From: an uncultured Phenylobacterium sp.
Lineage (GTDB): Bacteria; Pseudomonadota; Alphaproteobacteria; Caulobacterales; Caulobacteraceae
DNA: 64,000 bases
Reading direction: 5' to 3'
Assembly (NCBI GenBank): GCA_966096115.1
Contig: CBHTUE010000002.1
Span: 9,162-73,161 of the forward strand
Below are positions 2,803 to 64,000 of the stretch, piece after piece. A program made the position numbers and the translations under genes. A model generated the notes under the pieces. That model did no database searches. It saw only the letters and a list, made by a program, of their open reading frames with translations, and was not told the origin of the DNA. Every line of letters begins with the position of its first letter. The first letter of the stretch is position 1.

Positions 2803-4365
2803 TCAGGCCAGGCGTCGCGCCGGCAGGTCGGCCCAGCGCTTGGCGAAGATGGCGCGGACCTTGGGCGCCTCTTTCGCATGGCGCGCCTCCGCCAGCGCCA
2901 TCACGGCGCCGGCAAAAGCCGTCCAACCGGCCTGGGTGTCGTCGATGGAGGGCGAGGTCTTCCAGGCTTCCAGCAGCAGCGGATCTGCCGCGCCCGCGCC
3001 CAGTAGGGACCGAATCTCCCAGAAAGCGCCGCCCCACGCCTCGCCCACCGGATGCGGTGCGACCGTGGTCTGGCCCAGATCCAGCGCCACGTCGTTGTCC
3101 ATCCGGCGCACGTAGCCGTTCGGGAACACCGTCTCCTTGAACAGGCGGTTGAACACCGGCGCGGCCTTGGCGGCGAATAGAGGCTGGCCGTTGAAGCTGC
3201 ACGGCAGGTAGTCGGCCAGCCCGGACTGGATGGACCCGAAGCCCTCCCGCTTGCGCGGCCGCGCCTCCATCAGCACGTGGTGGCTGTACTCGCGCAGCAG
3301 CACGTCCGGGTCGCCGGCCAGGGCCTTGGCGATGACCATCTTGTTGGGGGCCATGTAGTAGGCGTTGTCGCGGGTCTTGGGATCGATGTGCACCGTCACC
3401 GGCTTGCCCGGCTTCACGCCGATGCCCAGCAGCCACTGCCGGTAGCGGGTGAGCACCGCCTCCAGCCTGGCCTGCAGCCGGGGCGTCAGCGCGGTGGACT
3501 TCTCGAAGCCGACGAACTGCTCGATGCGGGTGACCTTCGCGGCGATGTCGCGGACGCTGCTTTCCAGCTCCGACACCTCGCCCAGGCGCGCGCGCAGGGC
3601 GACGAGTTCTGTCTGCAGGCCCGCGGCGTCCTTCATCTGCTGCTCAACGGCGTCGCGGGCCGCCTTCAGTTCGCCGTCGATCTTCTCGCGTTCGGCCTTC
3701 AGGTCGGTGTCGATGCCGTCGCGCGCCTTCTCCACCGTGGCGCGGAAGTCGGCGTAGGAACGCACGCCCAGGATCGCCAGGACCGCCGCCAGGATCGCCA
3801 GCGGCAGGCCGACCGCGAGCGCGAACCACTGGGCCCATTTCAGCAGCCGCTCGGCGATGGCGTCGGAGGTCTCGAATTCGACGAGCTTGGCGTCGCGGCC
3901 TTCCGGGGCGGCGGGAGCGGCCGCGGCGGACGCGGCGACGGACGCGGGAGCCGGGAGGTCCTCGGCGGCGACCAGCGAACGCTGCTTGGGCGTGAGCACG
4001 ATCAGGGCCTTGCGCGCCGTCTCCCGCTCGGCGCGGGCGATCTCGGCGTCCAGCTGTTCGAGCCGGGCGGCGGAGGCGTCGGCGGCGACCTGGCCGGGGT
4101 CGGCCAGCTGCTGGCGGCGGACTTTCAGGGCCAGCACGCGGCGCTCGGCGACCAGCGGCGCGGCCGCGATCTCGGCGTCGATGCGCAGGAGGTTGAACTG
4201 CTGCTTCTGGGCGTCGGTGAGGCGCAGCGCGCCGGCGCGGGCCTGCACTGCCTCGACGTACCGGGCGCCGTCGCCGCCCTGCCCGACGGCCGGCCCGGCG
4301 GCCAACAGCAGGACGCACGCCACCAGGGTGGCCTGACACCGCGCCGAACGTGCGAGCCTCGCCAT
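2803..4365 (-). CDS. Membrane protein: signal peptide, Spy/CpxP-like LTxxQ domain, TM helix, coiled coil, degenerate M4/M36-like peptidase domain
   Basis: LRLTDAQKQQ and VLTPKQR motifs; hydrophobic FALAVGLPLAILAAVLAILGV; NAYY...REYSHH...QSGLADY...PHPVGEAWGGAFWEIR. Confidence 0.65.
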   Translation of the reverse strand: MARLARSARCQATLVACVLLLAAGPAVGQGGDGARYVEAVQARAGALRLTDAQKQQFNLLRIDAEIAAAPLVAERRVLALKVRRQQLADPGQVAADASAARLEQLDAEIARAERETARKALIVLTPKQRSLVAAEDLPAPASVAASAAAAPAAPEGRDAKLVEFETSDAIAERLLKWAQWFALAVGLPLAILAAVLAILGVRSYADFRATVEKARDGIDTDLKAEREKIDGELKAARDAVEQQMKDAAGLQTELVALRARLGEVSELESSVRDIAAKVTRIEQFVGFEKSTALTPRLQARLEAVLTRYRQWLLGIGVKPGKPVTVHIDPKTRDNAYYMAPNKMVIAKALAGDPDVLLREYSHHVLMEARPRKREGFGSIQSGLADYLPCSFNGQPLFAAKAAPVFNRLFKETVFPNGYVRRMDNDVALDLGQTTVAPHPVGEAWGGAFWEIRSLLGAGAADPLLLEAWKTSPSIDDTQAGWTAFAGAVMALAEARHAKEAPKVRAIFAKRWADLPARRLA

Positions 4366-4420
4366 GCACTCGACGCTAGCTACACCTTAGGATGCAGGCA
4401 ACACGCGTCACGCGAAGGGG

Positions 4421-6289
4421 TCAGGCTCCGTGCGCCCTGAGCGCGGCGCGGTCTGCCGGCGACAGGTCCATCGTGGCCGCGGCGCGCCACTTCGCCCGCG
4501 CCTCGTCCGTCCTGCCCAGCTTCGCCAGCGCCTCGCCCCACTTCAGGTGCAGGCGGCCCCAGCGGGGGGCGAGTTTGGCGGCTTCCGTGAACTTCGCCGC
4601 TGCGCCCTTGGCGTCGCCCTTGGCCAACAGGGCCTCGCCGGCGATCTCGGGGGGATCCGCGAAACGCGGCGCTCGGCGCTCGGCGACTCTCGCCCTGGCC
4701 AGGGCTCCGGCTAGGTCGCCGCGTGCGAGCAACGCCTGGGCCCAGGCGCTCTCGGCCCAGGCGCCCTTCGGGTCCGCCGTCGCCGCTCGGGCGAACCAGG
4801 CGTCGGCGCTCGCCGCGTCACCGGCCAGGGCCGCTATGCGACCGCGCACGATCAGGCTGTCGTAGCTATCGAGCGGCGCGGCGGCGATCCGCGCCCGCGC
4901 GGCGGCCGGATCGGCACCGCCGGCCAACGCCAGCGCCACCTGCGGCCCGACCTCTACCACGATGCGGTCGCGAAGCGCCGGGTAGCGGGCGGCCAGGGCC
5001 TCGGCCTCGGCCGCCGCGGCCAGAGCGGCGGTGACATCGCCTTCGGCCACCCGGACCTTCAGGCGCATCAGTACGGCGTCGTAGGCCCGCGCCACGGTCG
5101 TGCGCGCGCCGGCGGACGGATCGGGTCGCGCGAGGTCGGCGCGCGCCGCCGCGATGTCGTGCTGGGCCAGGTGCACCCGGACCAGCACACCCACCATGTT
5201 GGTGTTGGCCCCCTGGGACCCGGCCGCCACGATCCCCGATGCGGCGGCCAGGGCCTTCGGGAGGTCCGCGTCGGCCAGCGCGGTAATCACTTCGGCGCGA
5301 AGCCGGGTCACGCGCCGGTCGCGCACGTCGGCGCGGGGCGTATCGTTCGCCAGCGCCTGAGCGGCGGCGGCGCGAGCCGCGGCGGGATGTCCCATCTGGA
5401 GTTCGTTGAAGGCGATGTTGGTCGGCGGCAGCATCATCCACGGCGCGATGGCCTGCGCGGCGCGGGAATAGCGGATCGAGGTGGCGACACCCTCCGTGTC
5501 CAGCGCCGCGTTGGCGAGCCCGCTGAAGCCCCACGCCCGCTCCGCCGGCGGCCCCGCGCGGGCGAGACGACCGAATATCGCCGCGCCCACCAGCGGGTCG
5601 CCGTGCTGACGCTGCCATATGGCGTAGCGGTAGGGCTCAGCGCGGGCGAACGCCGCGTCACCCGCGGCGTCGATCAGACCCTCCAACTCGGCCTCCGCGC
5701 CCCGGGCCGTGACCCCAGGCTGCGCGGCGACACGCACGGTCAACGCGGCCGCCCCGCCGTGCAGGGCGACCTCGCCGGTGATGTGGGTCTCGTGACCGAG
5801 CCAGCCGCGCAGTTCCCGGTTCAGTTCGGCAATGGTCACGCCGGTCTCGGGAATCTCGATCCGCACGTCGCCATCCCAGGTGCGCGCGAAGCTGGACGGG
5901 GCGCGCTGGCTCGAGACCTGCGACTGCATCGTACTCATGCGGTCCAGCAGTCGGCTGGCCACGACCTGGCCGATCATCCCCTCCTGCGCCAGTGACGGCG
6001 GCACGGAGAAGGGTTCGATGATCAGGGCGTGCGCTCGCGACGCCTGCCAGATCAGCACGCCGAGCGTGGCGGCCAGAGCCAGACCGGCCAAACCCGTGAG
6101 CGCCTTGAGGGCGAATCCGGCCCGCTCGGAGGCGATCTGCCAGCGGATCAGCCGGCCCTGGTCGACGAGCAGCCGGCGAGCGGGACTGTCGGGGGCGGTG
6201 TCCTTCGCCTCCGCCTCCATGGCGATCTCGACGGCATCCGGCGTGGTGGGCGCGGGGTCGGGCTTGGGTCGAACGGGCCGCTTCGCCAT
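4421..6289 (-). CDS. Membrane-anchored TPR-like repeat protein (paralog A)
   Basis: ATG 6289 immediately after the upstream stop; N-terminal TM, Ala-rich helical TPR-like C-terminus ending PRWGRLHLKWGEAL. Confidence 0.75.
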   Translation of the reverse strand: MAKRPVRPKPDPAPTTPDAVEIAMEAEAKDTAPDSPARRLLVDQGRLIRWQIASERAGFALKALTGLAGLALAATLGVLIWQASRAHALIIEPFSVPPSLAQEGMIGQVVASRLLDRMSTMQSQVSSQRAPSSFARTWDGDVRIEIPETGVTIAELNRELRGWLGHETHITGEVALHGGAAALTVRVAAQPGVTARGAEAELEGLIDAAGDAAFARAEPYRYAIWQRQHGDPLVGAAIFGRLARAGPPAERAWGFSGLANAALDTEGVATSIRYSRAAQAIAPWMMLPPTNIAFNELQMGHPAAARAAAAQALANDTPRADVRDRRVTRLRAEVITALADADLPKALAAASGIVAAGSQGANTNMVGVLVRVHLAQHDIAAARADLARPDPSAGARTTVARAYDAVLMRLKVRVAEGDVTAALAAAAEAEALAARYPALRDRIVVEVGPQVALALAGGADPAAARARIAAAPLDSYDSLIVRGRIAALAGDAASADAWFARAATADPKGAWAESAWAQALLARGDLAGALARARVAERRAPRFADPPEIAGEALLAKGDAKGAAAKFTEAAKLAPRWGRLHLKWGEALAKLGRTDEARAKWRAAATMDLSPADRAALRAHGA

Positions 6290-13008: not shown

Positions 13009-15300
13009 TCAGAACCGGATGTTGGCTTCGACGCCGTAGAGGCGCGGCTCGTTGAAGATCCCGTACGTCCCCAGCGCGGCGTTAGTGTTGCGCAGGAAGG
13101 CGTACTTCTCGTTGAACAGGTTGCGGGCCCACAGCGCGACCTGGAGCGTGGCGTCGCTGCCGGTCAGCTTGATGTCGCCCAGCGCCAGGCGGCCGTTGAC
13201 GACGAAGGAGTCGTCGCTCTGCGTCGGGTCGGTCGTCGAAGTGTACTGGCCATCGGCCCAGTTGCCGTCGAGGTGGGCGCGCAGGGTCCCGATCGACACC
13301 GGGACCTCGTAGTCGACCGCGAGGTTGCCGGCGTTCTTCGGCGTGTAGAGCGGGTAGACCGTCGCCTGGGCGTTGGTGAACGGGTTGAACGCCTTGGAGA
13401 GCGTGACCTTGGTGTAGGTGTAGCTGCCGGACAGGGTCAGGCCCTCGAGCGGGTTGAGCGCGAAGTCCGCCTCGATGCCCTTGGTGCGGCCGGTGGCGGC
13501 GTTGGTGGTCTCCAGCGTGCCGCGGTTGTTGTTCAGGATGATGACGCTGAAGTCGACCTGCACGTCCGTCAGGCGGCCGGTGTAGGCGGCGATGTTGAAG
13601 CGGGCCCGGTGGTCCCAAAACTCGGTCTTCGCGCCGGCCTCGAACATCGAGACATGCTCGGGATCGAAGGCGCGGTAGGTCAGCGAACGCGAGTTGGCGC
13701 CGCCGGACTTATAGCCCGTGCTCCACTTGCCGTAGAGGTTGATGTCGGGCGTCGCGTCCACCGCCAGGATGACCAGCGGGTCGAACCGGTTCCAGGACTC
13801 GTTCAGCGGGATCTTGCCGACCACGGTCACCTTGTTGGCGTTGACGTAGCTGGGCAGGGCGCCGTTCACGGTGTCGAGCGAGCCGCTCTTCTTGTCGTGG
13901 GTGTAGCGGCCGCCCACGGTCACGTGGGTGATCCCGTCCCAGATCGGAGGGGTCCACACCGCCTGCCCGAAGACGCCCGAGCTCTTGGTGGTGACGTGGC
14001 TCGCCCGGTCGAAGGGCACGGTGTCGAGGTTCAGCGTCAGGAAGGTGTAGGCCGTGCCGGTGGCGTTCCACTGCAGGGAGTTGGGCGTCTGGGCGTTGTC
14101 GCGGGCGTTTTCCCGGAAATAGAACAGGCCGCCGGCGAACTGCACGGTGGGGATCTCGCCGATCACCTGCAGTTCCTCGCTGTACTGGTCCTGGTAGGTG
14201 TGGGCCTGGCTGTAGCGGGCGAAGAAGCCGTTCGGCGTGAACACCGACAACACCTCCTCGGCATTGTCGTACTGCGACTGGCTGAGGTGGCGGTAGGACG
14301 AGACCGACTTCAGCTTGATCTGCGGGGTGAGGTTCCAGTCCAGCGTCAGGCGATGGCCGTAGGTATTGCCGATGCTCTCCTGGATCGGCACGCCGACCGG
14401 CGCGGATTTCGCCCGGTCCGGCTGCGTGACGATCAGCGGAGCCAGCGCCAGCGACCCCTTGCTCAGCAACTGGACGAAATAGGGCGTGGTGGCATCGACC
14501 GCGACATCGGCGGCGTAGTCGGCGGTGAAGCTGTCGGACGGCCGCCAGCGGATCTGGGCGTGGGCGCCGCGCTTGTCGTAGCTGTTGAAGTCCGGCTGGC
14601 CGGACGTGGTCGGGTTGGTGACCGTGCCGTCGCGCTTGCTGAGCAGGCCGTCGAACTTGAAGCTGACGTCGTTCCAGGCCGGCAGGTCGACGTGGGCCTC
14701 GGCGCGGTAGGCGCCGTAGTTGCCGTAGCTGGCGGTGGCCTTGACACCGAAGGTCCCGCTGGGAGCGCGGGTGACGATGCTGATGGCCCCGCCCTCGGTG
14801 TTGCGGCCGAACAGCGTGCCCTGCGGGCCTTTCAGAACCTCGATGCGCTCGACGTCATAGAGGGCGGTGCCCAGGCCCTGGGCGCGGCCCAGGTAGACGC
14901 CGTCGATGTAGACGCCGACGGCCTGGTCGCGGGCCGGCTGGTTGGCGTCGCCCAGGGCGCCGATACCGCGCATGCCGATGGTCAGGGCCGACTTGCGGGC
15001 GAAGAACGGCGCCACCCGCAGCGACGGGATCGAGCCGTCGACCAGGTCCTCGATCGACTGGGCGTGGCGGTCGGCCAGGTCATTGCCGTCCAGGGTCGAG
15101 ATGGAGATCGGCGTGTCCTGCAGCTTGGTCTCGCGCTTCTGGGCGGTGACGACCACCTCCTCCAGACCGGTTCCGGCGGCGGCGTCATCGGCGGCGGCCG
15201 CGGCGGCGGCGGCGCGCGCCAGCGAGGGCAGGACGGCCGCGAGAGCGACAGTGGCAAACAGGATAGCGTGGCGGCCGGCGACGGCGCGGACTGAAGACAT
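13009..15300 (-). CDS. TonB-dependent receptor
   Basis: ATG 15300; LEEVVVTAQKRE, IEVLKGPQGTLFGRN plug motif, C-terminal Phe (YGVEANIRF). Confidence 0.95.
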   Translation of the reverse strand: MSSVRAVAGRHAILFATVALAAVLPSLARAAAAAAAADDAAAGTGLEEVVVTAQKRETKLQDTPISISTLDGNDLADRHAQSIEDLVDGSIPSLRVAPFFARKSALTIGMRGIGALGDANQPARDQAVGVYIDGVYLGRAQGLGTALYDVERIEVLKGPQGTLFGRNTEGGAISIVTRAPSGTFGVKATASYGNYGAYRAEAHVDLPAWNDVSFKFDGLLSKRDGTVTNPTTSGQPDFNSYDKRGAHAQIRWRPSDSFTADYAADVAVDATTPYFVQLLSKGSLALAPLIVTQPDRAKSAPVGVPIQESIGNTYGHRLTLDWNLTPQIKLKSVSSYRHLSQSQYDNAEEVLSVFTPNGFFARYSQAHTYQDQYSEELQVIGEIPTVQFAGGLFYFRENARDNAQTPNSLQWNATGTAYTFLTLNLDTVPFDRASHVTTKSSGVFGQAVWTPPIWDGITHVTVGGRYTHDKKSGSLDTVNGALPSYVNANKVTVVGKIPLNESWNRFDPLVILAVDATPDINLYGKWSTGYKSGGANSRSLTYRAFDPEHVSMFEAGAKTEFWDHRARFNIAAYTGRLTDVQVDFSVIILNNNRGTLETTNAATGRTKGIEADFALNPLEGLTLSGSYTYTKVTLSKAFNPFTNAQATVYPLYTPKNAGNLAVDYEVPVSIGTLRAHLDGNWADGQYTSTTDPTQSDDSFVVNGRLALGDIKLTGSDATLQVALWARNLFNEKYAFLRNTNAALGTYGIFNEPRLYGVEANIRF

Positions 15301-15442
15301 GTAGACCCCCTGGTTGGGAGGCCTTGTGGCGAGCGCGCGTGACGGGCTCGTTCCGCTTTGATGATGCTTTCCAGAAGCCGTCGCGATGGATGTGTGTCGG
15401 CCTGGGCGACGCACAACGTATTGGCAGCCGGCGCCCCGACTT

Positions 15443-16168
15443 TCAGCGCCAGTAGCGGTAGGTCCAGAGCGGGGTAAAGCCGGCGCGGCGGTAGATGCGG
15501 CGGGCGGAGTTGGCTTCCTCGACCTGCAACACGACGCGCTCGACGCCCTGTCCCAGGAGCGCGCGGCCGAAGGCGCCCAGGATCGCGGCGGCGTGGCCCC
15601 GGCCGCGATGGGCCGGCGCGGTGCGCATGCCGTGGATGCCCGCCCAGCCGTCGACGACGGTCGCGACGCCGACCGCGTGGGTGGCCCCGCCCTCCCCGGC
15701 CGCGCCATAGAGGGCGTTCGGCGAGCGGCTGAGGGTCTCGGCGCGCAGGCGGCCTTCCTCAGGATCGAAGCCCTCGCCCATGAAGACGGCCGACCAGGCG
15801 GCGTCGGGGCGTGGCAGCAGGAGGGCGGGACCGTCGGCGAAGGCCGCCAGGGCGGCGACCTCGCCCAGCTTCATCACCGTCGGCTGCTGGCCGGTGAGCC
15901 CGTGGCGGGCGACGGCGTCGCGCGCGGCGTCGAGGCCGGGGACGTCGGCGAGGCGGAAGGCCGGTGACAGGCTGCGGGTGCGGAAGGCGGCGACGATCGT
16001 ATCTATCGCCGAGATGTCGGGATCGTGGCTGAGCGGCACGGCGCTCTTGGCCCGGCCGATCGGCCCCGCCTGCAGCGGAACCAGCCAGCCGCCGATCTCG
16101 ACCGATTGCGTGGGCGCAACGGCCCCGACGACGGAGCGTTCGAGGGCCTCGAGGTTGCCCGGGCCCAA
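15443..16168 (-). CDS. GNAT family N-acetyltransferase
   Basis: TAPAHRGRGHA acetyl-CoA motif, LQVEEAN, YRRAGF. Confidence 0.85.
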   Translation of the reverse strand: MGPGNLEALERSVVGAVAPTQSVEIGGWLVPLQAGPIGRAKSAVPLSHDPDISAIDTIVAAFRTRSLSPAFRLADVPGLDAARDAVARHGLTGQQPTVMKLGEVAALAAFADGPALLLPRPDAAWSAVFMGEGFDPEEGRLRAETLSRSPNALYGAAGEGGATHAVGVATVVDGWAGIHGMRTAPAHRGRGHAAAILGAFGRALLGQGVERVVLQVEEANSARRIYRRAGFTPLWTYRYWR

Positions 16169-21002: not shown

Positions 21003-21929
21003 ATGACTGGCTCCGCCGTAAACCCGCAAGTCGCCGACACGGCGGAGGTGATGCGCACCACCGGCTGGGCGGACTACGCCCTGCTGGATTCCGGCGGTGG
21101 CCGGAAGCTGGAGCGCTACGGGCCCTACACCGTCGTGCGTCCGGAGCCGCAGTGCCTGTGGACCCCCAGGTTACCTGCGGCGCGATGGGAGGCGGCCGAC
21201 GCGGTGTTCGACCCCGCCAACAGCGACGACGAGGACGCCGGGCGCTGGCGGTTCAAGGGCCAGCCACGGGAGACCTGGCCGCTCGGCTGGGGCGACGTGC
21301 GGTTCCACGGACGGTTTACGGCCTTCCGGCACCTGGCGTTCTTTCCCGAGCAGGCGGCGAACTGGGAGTTCCTGGACGCGCAGGTGCGCGCCGCCGTCGC
21401 CGCGGGGGGGCCGCAGCCGAAGGTGCTGAACCTGTTCGGCTATACCGGCGTGGCCAGCCTGGTGATGGCGGCTGCTGGCGCGGCGGTGACGCACGTGGAC
21501 GCCTCGAAGAAGGCGGTGGCCTGGGCGCGGGAGAATGCCGAGCTATCGGGACTGGCCGACCGGCCCGTGCGCTGGATCACCGAGGACGCCCGGAAGTACG
21601 TCGCTCGCGAAGTGCGGCGGGGCTCGACCTACGAAGGGATCATCCTGGACCCGCCGAAGTACGGCCGCGGGCCGGACGGGCAGGTGTGGCGGCTGTTCGA
21701 GGACCTGCCTGAACTTGCGGGACTATGCGCCCAGCTTCTTTCGGAAAATGCGAAGTTCCTGGTGCTGAACGCCTATGCCGAGCGGATCTCCGGGCCGGCG
21801 CTGGCGGGCCTGCTCGCCGAGAAGCTCGCCGGGCGCGGCGGGCGGATCGAGTGGGGCGAACTGGCGCTGGAGGAAGAGCGCGGCGACCGGGCGATCGGCA
21901 TGAGCTTCTTCGCACGGTGGACGGCGTGA
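21003..21929 (+). CDS. Class I SAM-dependent methyltransferase (RlmI/RlmK-like)
   Basis: VLNLFGYTG, VDASKKAV, IILDPPKYGRG; alternative start at 21051. Confidence 0.85.
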   Translation: MTGSAVNPQVADTAEVMRTTGWADYALLDSGGGRKLERYGPYTVVRPEPQCLWTPRLPAARWEAADAVFDPANSDDEDAGRWRFKGQPRETWPLGWGDVRFHGRFTAFRHLAFFPEQAANWEFLDAQVRAAVAAGGPQPKVLNLFGYTGVASLVMAAAGAAVTHVDASKKAVAWARENAELSGLADRPVRWITEDARKYVAREVRRGSTYEGIILDPPKYGRGPDGQVWRLFEDLPELAGLCAQLLSENAKFLVLNAYAERISGPALAGLLAEKLAGRGGRIEWGELALEEERGDRAIGMSFFARWTA

Positions 21930-53141: not shown

Positions 53142-54650
53142 TTAGGGCGACATGGCGGTCTTCAGCTCGCCCTTGGCGTAGAGGCCCTGGCCGATGACCT
53201 GGCCGTCGCGGCTCACCTCGGCCGCCGCGCCATCGAGATTGTCGGCCGCCCAGGTCCCGGTGAGAGACCGGCCGTCGCGCCAATGCAGCACGCCGTAGCC
53301 CTGCAGCTTGTCGGCCACCCATTGGCCGGCCTTGGCGGTGTAGTTGCGCGTCGGCCCGCCGGTATAGACGCCGTACTGGCGCGCGCCTTCGATGTAGGTG
53401 CCCGAGAAGTCGTCGCCGTCCGGATAGCGCTCGACGCCGCGCACGCGCACGCCGTTCTGCTGCACCCCCTCGAAGCTGCTCTTGTCGGCGAAGCGGACGA
53501 TGACGAAGCCGTGGCGCAGGTCGTTGACCCACTGGCCCTCCTGCCGCTCGCCGTCCTGGTAGACGTTGACGCCGTAGCCCTCGGCCTTGCCGTCCTTCGC
53601 CTGGCCGGCGTAGCGCCAGCTGTGGGTGGCGCCGGCGGCGTCCTTGTAGGATCCGGTGAGGATGAAATAGCCCGCGACCTTGCGCTCGGCCTTCTGCTCG
53701 GCGTCGCGCGCCTTGGCCGCAGCGGCGACGGCGGCGGTCTGCGCCAAGCGGCCCTCGTCGGCGGCGGTGGTGGCGGTCAGCTCCGCCCGCTTGGCGGCAT
53801 CGACGGCGTTCTGGACGGCCGGCGCATAGACGGAAGTCGGACGCGGCGGCGTGTAGGCCGTGGGCGCCGTCGCGACCTGGGTCGGCGGAATGAAGTAGAG
53901 CGGTTCGCCGCCCAGCGAGCCGTAGACGAACGGCTGCTGGCGGTTGGAGGTGTCGCGCAGCACGTCGTCGCCGACCTGGCGGAACAGCAGGCTCACCTCG
54001 ACGCCCGAGGCCGGCAACCGGCGGATCAGCGCTGCTGCGAACGGGCTGTGCTCGCCGCTTCCGTCGTCGGCCGTGGTGCCCTCGCGGGCGGCGAAGACCA
54101 CCAGGGTGTGTCCCAGCGGCTCCACGCGCGAGAGACCACGGCCCACGGCCCGGGTCCCGCCGCCCGATAGCTGCATCCCGGCCGCGAACGGGTTGTTGCG
54201 GCAGGCGTCCAGCATCACCAGGCCCAGCCGCCGCGCGCCACCCACGGCCTGCATCACCAGGTCCAACGGCACCGCCTCGAACTGCACGTCGGTGTTGGTG
54301 GCCAGCCGGGCGTCCACGGGCAGGAGGTAGTTCACCCCGCCCATCTCCATCCCGTGGCCGGCGTAGTAGATCACGGCCATGTCGGCGTCGCGGGCGGCGT
54401 TGGCGAAGGCCTGCAGCGCGCGGCGCATGCCCTGCTGGTCCAGGTCGGAAAGGACGGTCACGCTGCTGAAGCCCGCCGTGCGCAGGGCGGCGGCCACGGC
54501 CGGGCCATCGTTGGCCGGATTGGGCAGGCGCGGCACGGCCTTGTAGCCGGCGTTGGCGATCACCAGCGCCACGCGGGTGTCGGCCATGGCCGGCGTCAGG
54601 CTGAAGATCGCCAGCGCGAACGCCAGGACGGCGCGTAACAGGAAGCCCAC
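53142..54650 (-). CDS. Exported caspase-family (C14) peptidase with MORN-like repeats
   Basis: Signal peptide; RVALVIAN..Y, YYAGHG and LDACRNNP His/Cys dyad; C-terminal YAGQ..DGK..GYGV / QEGQWVNDLRHG repeats. Confidence 0.85.
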   Translation of the reverse strand: MGFLLRAVLAFALAIFSLTPAMADTRVALVIANAGYKAVPRLPNPANDGPAVAAALRTAGFSSVTVLSDLDQQGMRRALQAFANAARDADMAVIYYAGHGMEMGGVNYLLPVDARLATNTDVQFEAVPLDLVMQAVGGARRLGLVMLDACRNNPFAAGMQLSGGGTRAVGRGLSRVEPLGHTLVVFAAREGTTADDGSGEHSPFAAALIRRLPASGVEVSLLFRQVGDDVLRDTSNRQQPFVYGSLGGEPLYFIPPTQVATAPTAYTPPRPTSVYAPAVQNAVDAAKRAELTATTAADEGRLAQTAAVAAAAKARDAEQKAERKVAGYFILTGSYKDAAGATHSWRYAGQAKDGKAEGYGVNVYQDGERQEGQWVNDLRHGFVIVRFADKSSFEGVQQNGVRVRGVERYPDGDDFSGTYIEGARQYGVYTGGPTRNYTAKAGQWVADKLQGYGVLHWRDGRSLTGTWAADNLDGAAAEVSRDGQVIGQGLYAKGELKTAMSP

Positions 54651-58439: not shown

Positions 58440-58529
58440 GGTGACGTGGCCGAGTGGCTGAAGGCAACGGTTTGCTAAATCGTCATACGTGAAAGCGTAT
58501 CGAGGGTTCGAATCCCTCCGTCACCGCCA
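58440..58529 (+). tRNA. tRNA-Ser (anticodon GCT)
   Basis: Acceptor stem GGTGACG/CGTCACC plus GCCA end, D-loop GCCGAGTGG, anticodon loop TTGCTAA, long variable arm, T-loop GGTTCGAATCC. Confidence 0.97.
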
Positions 58530-58731
58530 CTTCTTTTTGTTTTTGCTGCAATTTGTGTCGAACCTCGACGTGGGCCCCACTTCGGCCCCCACGTTGGGCT
58601 CAAGGCAAAGCGCGCTTAGTTTCTCTGAGCGGCTCAGAAACGCCTGTCCGCAAGCTTGCTGGCGGGCCCTCGCATCGGAGCCTTGGGAGAGCGCCCCTGC
58701 CTATCGGGCGCCGCGGCGAAGGGCGAGCCGT

Positions 58732-60456
58732 CTAGCCCCCGCGGAACAGGCGTCGGCGCGTCGCCTCTTCCGTCCAGTGTTCCTCGTGAACCCGTTCGAG
58801 CCTGATGGCCGCTTTGACGACGTTCTGGAGCGCCTGCAGCGTAGGCTCCGGCCCGATCGTCGCGCGGAGCGCCTGGAGGCTCTCGACGAGCGCCTGACTC
58901 CGCCGCGCCTGGTCGGAAAGCGAGAGCGTCGCCTCCAGCGCCAGGCACGCGGCCCCGATGGCCGGGACGATGGCGCCGGCCATGATCACCACCCCTCCCA
59001 GCCAGTGCGGCGTCTCGAAATCGAGGAATGCGGCCGCCGCTGCGAGCAGCACATAGCTGCTCAGGATCAGCAGCAGCAGGGCGAAGCTGGCGTTTTCCAG
59101 CAGGTGGACCCGATGCGAGATGCGCCCGTTGATGCGCCACTGATCGCGATGGTAGGCGGCTTGCCCCCCGATCAGTTCGTCGATCGCCCAGCCGCCCCAG
59201 GTCCGCACGCGCTCCGCGTCGAACCTGCCGCTCGGCAGGCCGACGTTACGCCGGATGTCGCGCGCGGCGGACGGCCGATGCGCCTGGGCGCCGTGCCCCC
59301 CGGCGCTCACGCCCAGGGTCCAGGCCGCGCGTTCCAGGCGCAGCTGCTCGGCGAGCTGGCGCGCGTCGCCCCATCGGTGATGGCGTGCGCCACGCTCTGA
59401 ATCCAGCCAGACCAGCAGCGCGCCGATGGCGAGCGCCAGCTCGATCGTCACCATGGCAAGCTTCAGTTGCGGCCAGACCGCCGACGCCGATCCGGCGATC
59501 GCCGCGAGGATGGCGACGCCGAGGAGAATGACCTGATGCGACCTGTGGATGCCGCCCAGCACCTGGGCCTGACGGCCGGCGCGGTCCCGGGCGCGGGTCA
59601 GCGCGATGAAGCCCGGCTGCGCCGACAGATCCGCCGGCGGCGCACGACGCTCGAAGGGTGACGCCTGGCCCCCAAGCACACGACGAAACAGGGCGTAGGT
59701 GCGCCACGGCCACCTCAGGCGCGGCGCGGGCCCGTCGTCCTCCCCCTCTCCCGTCTCCGCATCGTGCTTCGGGCGAGTTCCGCCCAGGCCGAGGTCGAAG
59801 AGGGCGGCGCGCAGCGCCTCGGAGCTCGCCGGCTGGACCAGAGGCGCCCGATCCAGTCGCAGTTCGTCGAGGAACTCCAGGAAACCGAAGTCTTCGTCGA
59901 GGTGCTCGGGCCGGATGATCCGGATCGACGCTGGCGCGCCGGGGCGCACCCAGAGGACGGGGATGCCGTGCTCGAGCGCCAACCGCACGGCGTCGGCTGT
60001 GCCGCCGGCGCCCCGCGCATGCTGGCCGGTCCAGACGACCACCAGCATGTCGGCGGCGCCGATCATCCACAGCGCCTGGGTGAGGTGCGGATTGCGCCCG
60101 ATGGCGCGGGTCGCCGCGCCATCCAGCCACGTCGACGATTCCACCAGGTCCGCCGCTTCGCGCGGGGCCACATCGTCGAGAAGCGGCAATACCGCATGAA
60201 CCGGACCGAGGCCCGCCGCGCGCCAAGCGCGGATCGCCAGGACGTCCGACCCCGGGGCCGCGCCCGTCAACAGGCGCGCCGCACCGACGCCGGCGTCGCG
60301 CAGCATCGCGAACGCTGTCTCCAGAGCCGCGCCGGCCGCCTCGGGATCGCCGAGATCGCCGGACCGGTTGTGTCCGGCAAAGGCGACCTGAAGGAAGCCG
60401 ATATGATCGGGCGAAGTCTCCGGCGCATCACTCCGTGCCGAACCACGCCCGCTCAT
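58732..60456 (-). CDS. SLOG (YspA/LOG/DprA-fold)-like domain fused to two 2-TM SLATT-like modules
   Basis: FAGHNR, LLTGAAPGSD, DMLVVVWTG..ARGAGGTADAV..A...GIPVLWV; then HRSHQVILLGVAILAA...RWGDARQLAEQLR and GQAAYH...VPAIGAA...ARRS segments with 4 TM helices. Confidence 0.7.
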   Translation of the reverse strand: MSGRGSARSDAPETSPDHIGFLQVAFAGHNRSGDLGDPEAAGAALETAFAMLRDAGVGAARLLTGAAPGSDVLAIRAWRAAGLGPVHAVLPLLDDVAPREAADLVESSTWLDGAATRAIGRNPHLTQALWMIGAADMLVVVWTGQHARGAGGTADAVRLALEHGIPVLWVRPGAPASIRIIRPEHLDEDFGFLEFLDELRLDRAPLVQPASSEALRAALFDLGLGGTRPKHDAETGEGEDDGPAPRLRWPWRTYALFRRVLGGQASPFERRAPPADLSAQPGFIALTRARDRAGRQAQVLGGIHRSHQVILLGVAILAAIAGSASAVWPQLKLAMVTIELALAIGALLVWLDSERGARHHRWGDARQLAEQLRLERAAWTLGVSAGGHGAQAHRPSAARDIRRNVGLPSGRFDAERVRTWGGWAIDELIGGQAAYHRDQWRINGRISHRVHLLENASFALLLLILSSYVLLAAAAAFLDFETPHWLGGVVIMAGAIVPAIGAACLALEATLSLSDQARRSQALVESLQALRATIGPEPTLQALQNVVKAAIRLERVHEEHWTEEATRRRLFRGG

Positions 60457-60637
60457 GCCTCGTCGCCCCTCGCTGCCGAATGTGGCTCCAGCCGCCCGCA
60501 AATCGAAACACCCCGGCGCACGCCCTAAGGCAAGCTAAGGCGGACCAGAGCAGCCACCAACCGCGCTCAACGCCTAGCCTTACCCATCCCGCCTGATTGC
60601 GCTACCGTCGTTCGTCCGGGGGGAGTGCGTAGCGCCT

Positions 60638-62851
60638 ATGAGGGATCGCGGTAAGCGGCAAGCCGTTCCGGATCCAGCTGGGATCCCACCGCTCCGTGTC
60701 GCGATCGTAGGTGGCGGCTGCGCCGCCATGACCGCCGCGTTCGAGCTCTCGCGCCCGGAGCACAACGGCCGCTACGCCGTCACGGTCTACCAGGAAGGAT
60801 GGCGCCTCGGAGGCAAAGGGGCGTCGGGCCGGGGCCCTTCCGGCCGGATCGAGGAACACGGCCTGCACGTCTGGCTGGGCTACTACGACAATGCCTTCCG
60901 GCTGATGCGCGAGTGCTACGCCGAGCTGGCGGCGGCGGAGCCGCCCTCGCCGTTCGGCGATTGGCGCGAGGCGTTCACGCCGGAATCCGACGTCGGCCTG
61001 TTCTCGCCCTCAGAGCAGCAGGGCTGGCAGGTCTGGCGGGGTCGCTTCCCGGAACAGCCGGGCCTCCCGGGAGACCCGCTGGCGCCGGGCGAGCTGTTGT
61101 CCCTGTCCCGCTACGTCGCGCGCACCCTGTCCCTGCTGCGAGCCCTGGTCCTGGACTGCCGGGTCGAAACCGGCAGCACGGAAGCCTTCACGGCCCAGGG
61201 CTCCGAACCGCCACCCGACCCACGGCCGGACCCCCGCAGGCTCACGGAGAGGCTCAACGACCTGGCCGGACTGGGATCGTTCGTCGCCGCCGCCACGCTG
61301 GCGGAGGCGCTGGGGGCGCTGGCCGCCGTGCTGAACAGCCCGACGGCCAGGCCAGGACGCGCCTGGCTGACCCTCGCCGACGACCTCTGCCGCAGGCTGC
61401 GGGGCTGGCTCGAGGACACCCTGATCGCCAGCGGCCGGCATCGGCACCTTTGGGAGATCATCGACCTCGCCCTGGCCTATGTCGTCGGCGTGTTCCGCTT
61501 CGGGTTGCTCACGGACCCGAGGGGCCTGGACGCCATCGACGACTACGAGTGCCGCGAATGGCTCGCGCTCAACGGGGCGTCCGAGCGGGCTCTGCAGTCG
61601 CCGTTCGTGCGCGGCATGTACGATCTGGCGCTCGCCTACGAGGACGGCAAAGCGGAGCGGCCGAGGCTGTCCGCCGGCCAGGGCCTGCGGTCGACCATGC
61701 GCATGTTCTTCGGCTATCGGGGATCGATCTTCTGGCGGATGCGCGCCGGCATGGGCGACGTCGTCTTCGCGCCCCTCTACGAGGCGCTGCGCCGCCGCGG
61801 CGTCCAGTTCGAATTCTTCCACCGCCTGACGAACGTCGGCCTGGCCCCGGGCGGCGAGCTGGCGCCGGGCGACCAGACCCATGTGCAGGAGCTCGTCTTC
61901 GACGTTCAGGCCGACGTGACGGGCGCTCAGCCCTATGCGCCCCTGGTGTCGGTCGCGGGCCGACCCTGCTGGCCCAGCCAGCCGGATTTCGGCCAGCTCG
62001 TCGATGGCGACCGCCTGGCCGAGGCCGGGGGGGATTTCGAGTGCCACTGGCAACGCCACCGCGTCCGCACCCGATCGCTGAGCGTCGGCCACGACTTCGA
62101 CTTCGTCGTCCTGGGCGTCGGCCTGGGCGCGATACCGCATGTCTGCGGAGAGCTGCTGCAGCGCGACGCACGGTGGCGGCGGATGACCACCGAGGTGAAG
62201 ACCGTGGCGACCCAGGCGTTCCAGATCTGGCTGCGAGAGGACCTGGATCAGCTCGGCTGGCCGGGGTCGCACCGCCTCGTCGCCGGGTTCGTGAAGCCCT
62301 ACGACACCTGGTGCGACATGGGCCACGTCGTGTCCCAGGAGGCTTGGCGGTCGCCGCCGCGCACCGCCGTCTACTTCTGCTCGGTGCTCGAGGACCCGCC
62401 TGAGCCGCCGTCGGACGACGATGTCGCCTACCCCGAGCGCCGCGCCGCGGAGGCCAGGGCCAACGCCGAGGCGTTCCTGGACGGACCCGCCCGGCTCCTG
62501 TGGCCCAGGGCCTACGACGCGGGCGGGAGGTTTCGGTGGGAGCTCCTGGCCGATGCGCGCGACTGCCCGAAGCACGTCCCCCCTACCGGGACGGGCCGGT
62601 TTGCCAGTCAGTACTGGCGCGCCAACGTCAATCCGTCCGACCGTTACGTGCAGAGCCTGCCCGGCACGGCGCGGCGCCGCATCTCTCCCCTGGACATGAC
62701 CTACGACAACCTGACCATCGCCGGCGACTGGACGGATTGCGGCTTCAACGTGGGCTGCGTCGAGGCTGCGGTCATGTCGGGGCGTCTCGCCGCCCACGCG
62801 CTGTCGGGGTCACCCGCACTTGAGGACATCGTCGCCTATGACCACCCCTGA
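60638..62851 (+). CDS. FAD/NAD(P)-binding oxidoreductase of the phytoene desaturase/ZDS/HpnE clan
   Basis: VAIVGGGCAAMTAAFEL, WRLGGKGASGR, EEHGLHVWLGYYDNAF, LTIAGDWT...GCVEAAVMSG. Confidence 0.8.
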   Translation: MRDRGKRQAVPDPAGIPPLRVAIVGGGCAAMTAAFELSRPEHNGRYAVTVYQEGWRLGGKGASGRGPSGRIEEHGLHVWLGYYDNAFRLMRECYAELAAAEPPSPFGDWREAFTPESDVGLFSPSEQQGWQVWRGRFPEQPGLPGDPLAPGELLSLSRYVARTLSLLRALVLDCRVETGSTEAFTAQGSEPPPDPRPDPRRLTERLNDLAGLGSFVAAATLAEALGALAAVLNSPTARPGRAWLTLADDLCRRLRGWLEDTLIASGRHRHLWEIIDLALAYVVGVFRFGLLTDPRGLDAIDDYECREWLALNGASERALQSPFVRGMYDLALAYEDGKAERPRLSAGQGLRSTMRMFFGYRGSIFWRMRAGMGDVVFAPLYEALRRRGVQFEFFHRLTNVGLAPGGELAPGDQTHVQELVFDVQADVTGAQPYAPLVSVAGRPCWPSQPDFGQLVDGDRLAEAGGDFECHWQRHRVRTRSLSVGHDFDFVVLGVGLGAIPHVCGELLQRDARWRRMTTEVKTVATQAFQIWLREDLDQLGWPGSHRLVAGFVKPYDTWCDMGHVVSQEAWRSPPRTAVYFCSVLEDPPEPPSDDDVAYPERRAAEARANAEAFLDGPARLLWPRAYDAGGRFRWELLADARDCPKHVPPTGTGRFASQYWRANVNPSDRYVQSLPGTARRRISPLDMTYDNLTIAGDWTDCGFNVGCVEAAVMSGRLAAHALSGSPALEDIVAYDHP

Positions 62852-63659
62852 CGCCCCAAGCGGCGCGGCCGCGCAACCCGAGCCCGGCCGGCCTCGCGCC
62901 AAGCGGCCGACGCCGGCCCGCGATGCGCCCCGCCGCGGCTATGGTCCCGAGCCTGCGGCGCCGGCCTCGCCCGATGCGGCGGCCAGCGCGGCCTCGGCGT
63001 CCGAGGCGATCGCCCACGCCGTTCGGCTGGGCTACTCGGTGATCGGCGAGAACATCGCCCAGGGTCGCGAGGCGGCGAGCGCGTTCCGGGCCGGCGACTA
63101 CCGGCCCGACAAAGCCACCGAAGACCTCAAGGCCGTGGCCTCGCGCATGCTGCAACTCACCCGGGAGCTCAGCACCCTGTCCTTCGACGTGCTGGAGCGC
63201 CTCGTGCAGGACCCGGCGGCCCGGGGGGGCGGCGCGCCGGCGAGCCCCCCGCCCGCCCCCACCGGCGGCGACCCCGCGACGCGGCCGGCCCCGGGTCCCT
63301 TCCAGGCCGGCGATCCCCCCGCCGGACCCGTCGAGGCCGCGAAGGCCCCGGCGCCGCAGGCCACGCCGCACGTGGAGCTGACCTGCAGCTTCAGTGGCGG
63401 CCGGGCCGTCCTGAAGGCCGGCGCCCTGTCTCGCCCCGACACGCCGGTGTTTCTCGTAGTGCCGGCGCTCACCGCCATCGAGCCTGGCCCGCCGACCATC
63501 ACCGGTGAAGTGACCTTCACCCCGGCCGCCAGCGGCGACGGCCTCGTGGCCAACATCAAGATCCCGGAGGGCCAGCCCCCGGGTCTCTACAGCGGAGTCA
63601 TCTGCGTCTGGGACACGGGCATCCCGATGGGCATGCTGACGATCGAAGTGCTCGCATGA
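62838..63659 (+). CDS. Hypothetical protein (Pro/Ala-rich linkers, helical segment, beta-rich C-terminal domain)
   Basis: Start overlaps the oxidoreductase end by 14 nt; stop overlaps the next ATG (ATGA); IKIPEGQPPGLYSGVI beta-strand pattern. Confidence 0.7.
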   Translation: MTTPDAPSGAAAQPEPGRPRAKRPTPARDAPRRGYGPEPAAPASPDAAASAASASEAIAHAVRLGYSVIGENIAQGREAASAFRAGDYRPDKATEDLKAVASRMLQLTRELSTLSFDVLERLVQDPAARGGGAPASPPPAPTGGDPATRPAPGPFQAGDPPAGPVEAAKAPAPQATPHVELTCSFSGGRAVLKAGALSRPDTPVFLVVPALTAIEPGPPTITGEVTFTPAASGDGLVANIKIPEGQPPGLYSGVICVWDTGIPMGMLTIEVLA

Positions 63660-64000
63660 TCCGCGAGCCTCCCGACGCCTTCGACGCGCCCCGGGCGGAC
63701 GGCGAGCTCATGTCGTCGCTGCTGGCCGAATACGGCGCGGCCACCCGGGAGACCCTTCAGCGCTACCTCCGCCGCGAGCGCCCAGCGCCCTATCTCGACG
63801 ACCTCATGGCGGACTATCCCGCGCGGGGCGGCAAGATGATGCGCCCCAGCCTGTGCATCGCCAATGCGCGGGCCTTCGGCGGACGGCTCGACGACGCGGT
63901 GAGGAGCGCCGCGGCCATCGAGCTCCTCCACAACGCGCTCCTGGTGCATGACGACATCCAGGACGGCAGCGAGACCCGACGCGGACGCCCGACCTTGCAC
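63656..64000 (+). CDS. Polyprenyl diphosphate synthase (trans-IPPS), N-terminal part; truncated by window end (not in ORF track)
   Basis: Manual translation from ATG 63656: ...YPARGGKMMRPSLC...AIELLHNALLVHDDIQDGSETRRGRPTLH (GGKxxRP, first DDxxD motif, RRG). Confidence 0.92.
   Translation, partial: MIREPPDAFDAPRADGELMSSLLAEYGAATRETLQRYLRRERPAPYLDDLMADYPARGGKMMRPSLCIANARAFGGRLDDAVRSAAAIELLHNALLVHDDIQDGSETRRGRPTLH

Follow-up and report, generated by a model that had tools for sequence, protein, structure and literature searches.

A stretch of 64,000 nucleotides from an uncultured Phenylobacterium sp. (assembly GCA_966096115.1, here G000; contig CBHTUE010000002.1, G000:C2:9162-73161), hereafter the window, carries next to a tRNA-Ser gene a pore-type gene whose product combines a predicted SLOG domain with two SLATT-like membrane modules, and, divergent from it, the start of an operon of isoprenoid-type enzymes. 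The operon and a convergent sensor gene with a TIR domain continue on the rest of the contig, which was read as C2:67000-86999 (locus L003). The explanation that we favour, with somewhat better than even confidence, is that two modules meet at this place and share one sensor, the pore-type protein being a Thoeris-like effector of a TIR-made alarm and not a pore gated by an isoprenoid. The domain architectures of the proteins, two neighbourhood associations (that of the pore family and that of the cassette) and the conservation of a three-part block of pore gene, cassette and sensor are the observations that carry it.

The pore-type protein

The pore-type gene lies at 58732-60501 on the minus strand and was called as an open reading frame (ORF) of 589 residues from a TTG codon; the true start is likely the ATG at 60456, which gives 574 residues, because the database copy of the protein (P0001) has that length. 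The protein collection holds 220 homologues, each of them unnamed or labelled DUF4231. An AlphaFold2 model made from an alignment of 42 homologues reached a predicted local distance difference test score (pLDDT) of 88.4 and a predicted template modelling score (pTM) of 0.86, and a Foldseek search of the PDB with this model points to a SLOG-type fold at residues ~35-245 (59767-60399, minus strand). The best PDB matches of this domain are DprA (5mll/3uqz), TM1055 (1rcu), a Moco carrier (6y01/2iz7), TT1465 (1wek), LOG (5zbk) and the N-termini of TRPM2/4/8, with probability 1.0 and E values from 2.5e-3 to 0.2. As modelled, the domain is a member of the SLOG superfamily, with the three-layer Rossmannoid alpha/beta fold common to DprA and LOG. 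The residues that are invariant in the 42 homologues, namely G43-H44, G80/G84/D86 and G164/G166/G167/D170 (motif GAGGTAD), form Gly-rich loops as in SLOG. Curated SLOG-type models of Pfam and NCBIfam (LOG, DprA, YpsA, LSDAT and others) gave no match at E<=0.1 with the protein or at E<=0.01 with the 42 relatives, and a profile of the pore family had no match among PDB sequences.

The C-terminal half of the model holds two modules with two transmembrane segments (2TM) each. The first, SLATT-like module (residues ~296-395; 59317-59616, minus strand) comprises the helices H296-339, H344-370 and H373-395. The second, with long cytoplasmic helices (residues ~429-587; 58741-59217, minus strand), comprises H429-493, H499-526, H528-546 and H555-587, and its hydrophobic segments at residues ~472-493 and 500-522 bring the protein to four transmembrane segments overall. 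Profile matches to this region stay below their cut-offs and agree with each other in kind: Pfam SLATT_3 at residues 326-418 (E 0.0015; 19.2 bits, cut-off 26.3), NCBIfam SLATT_1 at residues 319-404 (E 1.3e-5; 25.1 bits, cut-off 41) and DUF4231 (14.3 bits, cut-off 24.7), with NCBIfam SLATT_3 on the same stretch. Among the 42 family members, DUF4231 matches 28 (best E 9e-7) and SLATT_3 matches 15 (best E 5e-4). As in SLATT domains, the 2TM pairs are flanked by long helices, and genes for nucleotide signals (TIR) are found as neighbours, in 32 of 44 loci. Of the original prediction of a SLOG domain followed by SLATT modules, the former is therefore borne out by the model with its Foldseek matches, and the latter is likely from the consistent matches below cut-off. 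No similarity of the protein to a transport family was found in Pfam or by Foldseek against the PDB.

TIR genes as partners of the pore family

The pore family is sporadic, and a homologue was found in 20 of 400 Caulobacteraceae genomes. In a first sample, one of 24 genomes of the same genus (G007) had a close orthologue with 50% identity, and three further genomes of the genus and three of the order gave distant, paralogue-like matches only. From whole genomes and from collections of genomes and of proteins, 44 distinct pore-family loci (<90% identity) were gathered and scanned with family hidden Markov models (HMMs) and tblastn. A TIR ORF lies within 10 kb of the pore gene in the 32 loci mentioned above, mostly directly adjoining it, and 27 of these 32 are without the isoprenoid-type cassette. 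Such a layout is Thoeris-like.

The TIR partners differ in build. A three-gene operon in which a TIR gene (~310 residues) is followed by the SLOG-SLATT gene and a gene for a 182-residue protein was found in L133 and, with gaps of ~50 bp, in L019-L023, L033 and L035. In L024, L038, L039, L130 and L137, a TIR-TolB_N-like-TPR protein of ~650 residues is encoded upstream, downstream or convergent to the pore gene, and in L038 the stop and start of the two genes overlap. In G007, the stop of a TIR-STAND-TPR gene overlaps the start of the pore gene. Even paralogues with just 25-30% identity adjoin a TIR ORF (L013, L014 and L016). When searched with PADLOC, the TIR proteins gave weak generic TIR matches (ThsB, SAVED_TIR, Aga-TIR) and the 182-residue protein gave none. 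The source assembly itself has a homologue of the latter (50% identity) standing alone at G000:C325:2303-2731, on a contig with no SLOG, SLATT or TIR match. Some pore-family genes have neighbours of a mobile or defence type: in L033 these encode an integrase of phage type and the HsdM of a type I system (14741-15895 and 21435-21764), and in L136 a HipA toxin kinase (3706-4965).

The isoprenoid-type cassette

The first gene of the cassette (60638-62851, plus strand) encodes a flavoprotein of 737 residues with Pfam NAD_binding_8 and Amino_oxidase matches: an N-terminal Rossmann site for FAD/NAD and a C-terminus like those of amine oxidases, HpnE and CrtI. It scores 60.7 bits against NCBIfam HpnE (cut-off 283) and 34 against zeta-carotene desaturase (cut-off 622). 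It has more than 5182 homologues, and identity is still ~60% for those of Cyanobium, Microcystis, Novosphingobium and Tsuneonella; genomes that carry the family are few, namely two of 301 evenly drawn Alphaproteobacteria. The second gene (62820-63659, plus strand) encodes a Pro-rich protein of 279 residues, here called X, which has no match in Pfam, NCBIfam or PADLOC; its N-terminal half is rich in Pro and Ala and its C-terminal part is conserved. The third encodes a polyprenyl diphosphate synthase, of which the window holds the 5' part (63656-64000, plus strand); the full gene (G000:C2:72817-73878) encodes 353 residues and matches Pfam polyprenyl_synt with an E value of 4e-52. Its first Asp-rich motif is DDIQD and its second DDVRN, and the DDxxN form of the latter is kept across cassettes. 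Second motifs of this form are known from archaeal and eukaryotic-type geranylgeranyl diphosphate (GGPP) synthases. The nearest NCBIfam models are IdsA, GGPP_syn and f2_encap_cargo4, each far above the scores of the protein in its cut-off. A cargo of family 2 encapsulins, the best model for the truncated synthase, was rejected for the full protein (157.9 bits against the NF041169 cut-off of 450), and no neighbour gene matched a model of an encapsulin shell.

Two paralogous genes end the operon (G000:C2:73929-75104 and 75109-76233, equivalent to 64768-65943 and 65948-67072 of the window). Their products of ~390 and 374 residues are 25% identical to each other and have the motif YCD[RH][YF]LN in common. 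A Novosphingobium orthologue, 31% identical to the first, was modelled with a pLDDT of 79.9, and Foldseek matched it at an E value of 3e-13 to ADC (3cmb/3bgt), Sbi00515 (6eej) and MppR (4jmd), the Pfam ADC match being weak (E 0.007); on this model, both genes after the synthase encode proteins of the ADC double-barrel fold. A saccharopine-dehydrogenase-like gene is present in many copies of the cassette and missing from that of G000. Among the operon products there is no head-to-head condensing enzyme of the SQS_PSY type, no isopentenyl-transferase and no nucleotide-handling enzyme.

The operon is one copy of a widespread orphan cassette, of which no published account was found in literature searches. 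A census of the cassette covered 82 loci, 80 from metagenomes (found by a family-alignment search) and one each from Novosphingobium sp. ZN18A2 and Cyanobium sp., with flavoproteins at 37-63% identity. The synthase is present in 49 of the 52 loci with sufficient downstream sequence, and homologues of X lie between flavoprotein and synthase in 30 of the 82. In both isolates the order is flavoprotein, small protein, synthase, saccharopine-dehydrogenase-like protein and one or two ADC-like proteins; there follow a convergent TIR-TPR or cyclase-AAA_16-TPR gene and a Crp-type regulator that binds cyclic nucleotide monophosphates (cNMPs). A cyclase-STAND-TPR or TIR-TPR gene is the constant companion of the cassette, found in 34 of 36 loci of at least 12 kb. 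One of the two long loci without a sensor is L097 (Ga0209956_1000015), which has four ADC-like genes around flavoprotein and synthase and no sensor within 10 kb on either side. The source assembly has another flavoprotein of this clan, a divergent one (34-44% identity), which is split over two contigs (C319, 281-2030, minus strand; C97, 73-1485) and preceded by a TolB_N-like/TPR protein without detectable TIR, in the gene order of L136.

The sensor

The sensor gene of the window locus (G000:C2:76262-79636, minus strand; window-equivalent 67101-70475; L003 9263-12637) is convergent with the cassette operon and encodes 1124 residues with TIR_2, Guanylate_cyc, AAA_16 and TPR matches. The TIR domain (Pfam TIR_2, E 1e-18) has kept the glutamate of the W-x-x-x-E motif, E73 in SEWVRSE, which aligns with the conserved Glu of all collected partner TIRs. 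A tree of partner TIR domains places it as sister to that of L135 and nested with the two TIRs that flank the pore gene of G007, one of which is operonic (support 96-99); the same well-supported clade holds TIR-TPR proteins linked to pore genes (L038, L039, L024) and to cassettes (L041, L044). The sensor is the sole strong TIR match in the G000 assembly (E 1e-59). The claim that it is the only TIR of the genome was softened, as three ORFs of ~640-670 residues (G000:C37:13845-15851, C37:16588-18513 and C46:15791-17728) match a TIR profile weakly, with E values from 4e-5 to 6e-3, and are possibly TIR-TPR proteins of a divergent kind.

The cyclase domain of the sensor looks degenerate. Its first metal-binding Asp is replaced (SCGLVGA versus the usual FCDLVGS) and the second is kept (TGDD); the Pfam match spans profile positions 57-175 only, and the features of an active class III cyclase are incomplete. 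The first Asp is also lost in L028, L031 and L152, and most cassette-linked cyclase sensors keep FCDLVGS and GDG. Judged by these sequences, sensors that acquired a TIR domain may have switched their output from a cNMP to a TIR product, with SLOG-SLATT as the receiver. Crp-type regulators with cNMP-binding domains adjoin the sensor gene in L041 (19408-20229), L042 (19330-20022) and L043 (12963-13649), and none was found at the window locus. Such neighbours fit a control of the cassette by cyclic nucleotides.

The link between pore gene and cassette

The co-occurrence of SLOG/SLATT genes with the flavoprotein and the synthase, which the original prediction had proposed to count, gave different answers from the two sides. 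From the side of the cassette there was none: no SLOG/SLATT protein was found in the 82 cassette loci (tblastn and family HMMs at E<=10, the HMMs detecting paralogues of 25% identity; 48 loci had at least 2 kb upstream), and the 14 Caulobacteraceae genomes in which the flavoprotein has an orthologue (>=53% identity) contain no pore gene anywhere. From the side of the pore gene, five of the 44 loci have a large flavoprotein gene of this clan no more than 10 kb away, and four of these have the synthase too. The divergent layout of the window recurs in L129 and L152. L152 has the full block of SLOG-SLATT gene, cassette and sensor in the same order, between other flanks and with no tRNA; its proteins are identical to those of the window at 73% (pore), 71% (flavoprotein), 52% (X), 81% (synthase), 66% (ADC genes) and 60% (sensor, full length). 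In L028/L029 and L135, a cassette of another type (GGR-like flavoprotein, two amine-oxidase flavoproteins and synthase) stands with a TIR-cyclase-STAND-TPR gene and a pore gene, in the order sensor-cassette-pore in one and cassette-sensor-pore in the other. L136 has a TIR-TPR gene that runs into the start of the gene for a 747-residue flavoprotein, and the pair is divergent from the pore gene. Every locus with both pore gene and flavoprotein that extends far enough has a TIR-bearing sensor. The link between pore gene and cassette is thus real in this lineage and probably runs through the shared TIR-bearing sensor.

It was first proposed that the operon makes a prenylated nucleotide or lipid-linked molecule that is bound or processed by the SLOG domain to gate the SLATT modules. 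The two units are divergent neighbours, an arrangement kept in L129 and L152, and the SLOG fold does include the LOG enzymes, which act on isopentenyl-AMP (PMC9503650). Such a direct ligand is nevertheless very improbable, and the analogy with LOG and cytokinin activation did not hold: the protein has no match to the LOG family (PF03641), its motif is GAGGTAD and not PGGxGTxxE, and the operon has neither an adenylate isopentenyl-transferase or similar product nor any other enzyme that handles nucleotides. Further, the synthase resembles GGPP synthases (C20 class) and is no user of dimethylallyl diphosphate, the cassette loci and the genomes with orthologous cassettes lack SLOG/SLATT, and the regular partner of the pore family is TIR, for the most part with no cassette near.

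The opposite extreme is that the adjacency is coincidental cargo, the pore gene being an orphan, or what is left of a decaying TIR-SLOG-SLATT operon, that came to lie beside an unrelated cassette in a variable region by tRNA-Ser and is functionally tied to neither cassette nor sensor. The segment is strain-specific, the usual upstream TIR gene and downstream 182-residue gene are missing (a homologue of the latter being on contig C325), and the overlap of the pore and flavoprotein families in whole genomes is not above chance (four of 400 Caulobacteraceae genomes, 2.4 expected). On the other hand, the pore ORF is intact, with normal G+C by codon position and all family-invariant residues in place; the same trio exists as a block in another context at 52-81% protein identity, and it arose at least twice more with a different order and cassette type. 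Since each gene family occurs in just ~5-12% of the genomes of the bacterial family, a repeated trio is very unlikely by coincidence. We consider cargo improbable and, against the reservation of the original prediction, judge the adjacency to be more than that, because the block is kept as a unit in the new context of L152 and trios recur with other orders and another cassette type in L028, L135 and L136.

Proposed mechanism and its alternatives

The signal chemistry, the formation of a pore, the connection from sensor to pore and any role in phage defence that we infer for the Thoeris-like effector would be as follows. The 1124-residue sensor would oligomerise on a trigger and fire its TIR domain, which would convert NAD+ to a nucleotide derived from ADP-ribose, i.e. 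an isomer or relative of cyclic ADP-ribose (cADPR). The cytoplasmic SLOG domain of the protein encoded 6.6 kb away would bind this nucleotide; the two SLATT modules would then oligomerise or open, the inner membrane would become leaky, and the growth of the infected or stressed cell would stop. The isoprenoid cassette would be tied to the same sensor, either as regulated by it or as a co-output, and would not be the maker of the SLOG ligand.

Several observations weigh against this. No TIR gene adjoins or is co-transcribed with the pore gene of the window, the adjacency of TIR and effector in one operon being seen elsewhere in the family; its proposed partner lies 6.6 kb away behind a five-gene operon of the other strand. 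Twelve of the 44 family loci have no TIR within reach, including one whole subclade (L037, L138-L141). Cassettes with TIR sensors outside Caulobacteraceae (L041, L044, L048, L095-L098) are without SLOG-SLATT, and therefore a TIR on the sensor alone does not demand this effector. None of the curated SLOG or SLATT models reaches its cut-off on the pore-type protein, PADLOC models do not match it, and the neighbourhood of the locus is no recognisable defence island. Lastly, two operons of 'SLOG and 4TM' with TIR gave no phage defence in E. coli (bioRxiv 10.64898/2025.12.03.692087, Table S2).

A wider reading joins all three modules into one circuit: the isoprenoid cassette would be wired to the STAND/TPR sensor, whose TIR output opens the SLOG-SLATT pore, and the cassette product would be either the cue of the sensor (a surveillance of lipids or of the isoprenoid pathway) or a second chemical output. 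This is unlikely, though it deserves a real share of the probability. If true, it would link bacterial immune signalling of the TIR/NAD-derived kind with small-molecule lipid chemistry. An indirect version of the original prediction, which we hold to be rather unlikely, has an isoprenoid-derived cue gate the pore in two steps: the TPR-STAND sensor would have as its ligand or guarded metabolite something that the cassette makes, be it end product or intermediate, and the TIR nucleotide would then open SLOG-SLATT. It would accord with the near inseparability of cassette and STAND/TPR sensor (34 of 36 loci), with L136, where flavoprotein and TIR-TPR genes share an operon next to a SLOG-SLATT gene, and with the three-part block being kept in a new context and re-assembled in other orders. 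Neighbourhoods, though, cannot separate a cassette that feeds the sensor from a sensor that regulates the cassette; the Crp-type regulators beside cyclase-type sensors (L041-L043, L060, L092, L118) speak rather for a sensor that regulates the operon, and most cassettes have no pore gene (0 of 82 in the census).

The trio may also have nothing to do with immunity and serve as a circuit for stress or envelope remodelling, with SLOG-SLATT as a regulated channel or exporter tied to a lipid product. The neighbourhoods of the cassette in isolates are metabolic (NorB/NnrS/AOX in Novosphingobium, ArgRS/HpsJ in Cyanobium) and no defence islands, and in G000 the flanking genes are catabolic ones (glyoxalase, SDR, Rieske oxygenase, TonB receptor). 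What makes this quite improbable is that no role other than that of a permeabilising, nucleotide-gated effector is known or predicted for SLATT domains to date, that some loci of the pore family lie beside an integrase with HsdM, or beside HipA, and that, as noted above, no similarity of the protein to a transport family was found.

Comparison with known systems

The closest parallels to the favoured Thoeris-like effector are found among Thoeris systems. In type VII Thoeris, the TIR protein ThsB is paired with the SLATT effector ThsH and the signal is canonical cADPR (bioRxiv 10.64898/2025.12.03.692087). There as here, a TIR partner gene accompanies a SLATT-type membrane effector, with the presumed logic that a TIR-made nucleotide leads to permeabilisation of the membrane. 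Compared by description, ThsH differs in that it is described with SLATT only, its ligand pockets being modelled between SLATT protomers, whereas in the protein of the window an N-terminal SLOG domain stands apart from two 2TM modules in tandem; and ThsB is small and adjacent, whereas the TIR of the window is part of a large STAND sensor at a distance. A pairing of TIR with 'SLOG and 4TM' is listed as a candidate Thoeris configuration in the same study (bioRxiv 10.64898/2025.12.03.692087). By stated architecture, these candidates (Streptomyces sp. GKU 895, Ca. Nitrospira nitrosa) resemble the present protein in having SLOG and four transmembrane helices beside TIR; they have been given no type number, and no STAND sensor or isoprenoid cassette is mentioned for them.

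In type I Thoeris, it is SLOG that binds the signal, 3'cADPR (bioRxiv 10.64898/2025.12.03.692087). The SLOG of type I ThsA (SIR2-SLOG) and of type III Thoeris receives a TIR-made cADPR isomer, as proposed here, and the several TIRs that accompany the SLOG effector of type III recall the two TIR proteins flanking the effector gene of G007. Unlike ThsA, with its SIR2 NADase, the present protein would act through membrane modules; and unlike type III, the TIR domains score 22-40 bits against NCBIfam ThcB4 (cut-off 220), and no Thoeris effector model matches the pore-type protein. The sensor is comparable to the TOMM kinase/cyclase fusion TIGR03903 and to Avs-type STAND sensors in its AAA_16 STAND core, C-terminal TPRs and N-terminal signalling or effector domain. 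TIGR03903 matches it over residues 128-1119 with 430 bits, under the cut-off of 705.75; it differs in having no kinase domain or TOMM genes, in its degenerate cyclase site and in the added TIR. Literature searches found no link of cyclase- or TIR-STAND-TPR proteins to an isoprenoid-type cassette. The cassette itself is like carotenoid and hopanoid routes in that a GGPP-synthase-like enzyme is co-operonic with a flavoprotein of the amine-oxidase clan (CrtI/PDS/HpnE-type). It differs from them in the lack of a head-to-head synthase (CrtB/CrtM/HpnC/HpnD), in the flavoprotein, which is ~250 residues longer and far under all equivalog cut-offs, and in two ADC-fold proteins that replace the known tailoring enzymes.

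In the fast-growing map of Thoeris systems, SLOG fused to tandem SLATT has so far been represented just by the unvalidated 'SLOG and 4TM' listing. The pore family, with its three kinds of TIR partner (small TIR, TIR-TPR and TIR-STAND), is a natural set in which to find the signal and the gating mechanism. The cassette, of which a STAND sensor with cyclase or TIR domain is the obligatory companion, is widespread, Cyanobacteria and Alphaproteobacteria included, and the sensor-cassette-pore blocks of Caulobacteraceae are the best place to ask whether a STAND sensor reads or controls an isoprenoid-derived metabolite, and whether such a sensor is an immune receptor or a metabolic regulator.

Locus layout and borders

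The layout that had been read from the window, a tRNA-Ser gene followed by a pore-type gene divergent from an isoprenoid-type operon, was confirmed by ARAGORN, the ORFs and Pfam. The tRNA-Ser(GCT) gene lies at 58440-58529 on the plus strand (ARAGORN), and the pore ORF lies ~200 bp past it on the opposite strand. The divergent spacer (60502-60637) has 136 bp, or 181 bp with 60456 as the start of the pore gene. A short divergent spacer is present, as had been supposed; a shared regulatory site in it was rejected, since a consensus scan of the spacer gave no promoter and no terminator, and there was neither an inverted repeat nor conservation with the spacer of L129, a 73%-identical relative.

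G022, the closest relative, keeps the four genes on the left side of the tRNA, the histidine-phosphatase gene and its flank at 86% DNA identity. The G022 contigs break at the tRNA, and synteny is back at the TonB-receptor gene (84% identity), which has other neighbours there. Given these limits of synteny, a segment of ~14.6 kb is specific to G000 and absent at this place in G022, with tRNA-Ser as its left border. Pore gene, cassette and sensor all lie in it, together with three catabolic genes; the genes past the sensor are those for a glyoxalase, an SDR, a Rieske oxygenase, a TonB receptor and a GFO/IDH protein. Of the 'tRNA island' originally proposed, the border at the tRNA stands. A classical integrative island was rejected: no att-like repeat of the tRNA 3' end was found on the contig or elsewhere, no integrase among the neighbour genes, and no shift in G+C was seen.

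To the left of the tRNA, the window also encodes (53142-54650, minus strand) a secreted-looking protein of 502 residues, of which the N-terminal half appears caspase- or peptidase C14-like (YAGHG ... DACRNNPF) and the C-terminal half seems to consist of MORN-type repeats.

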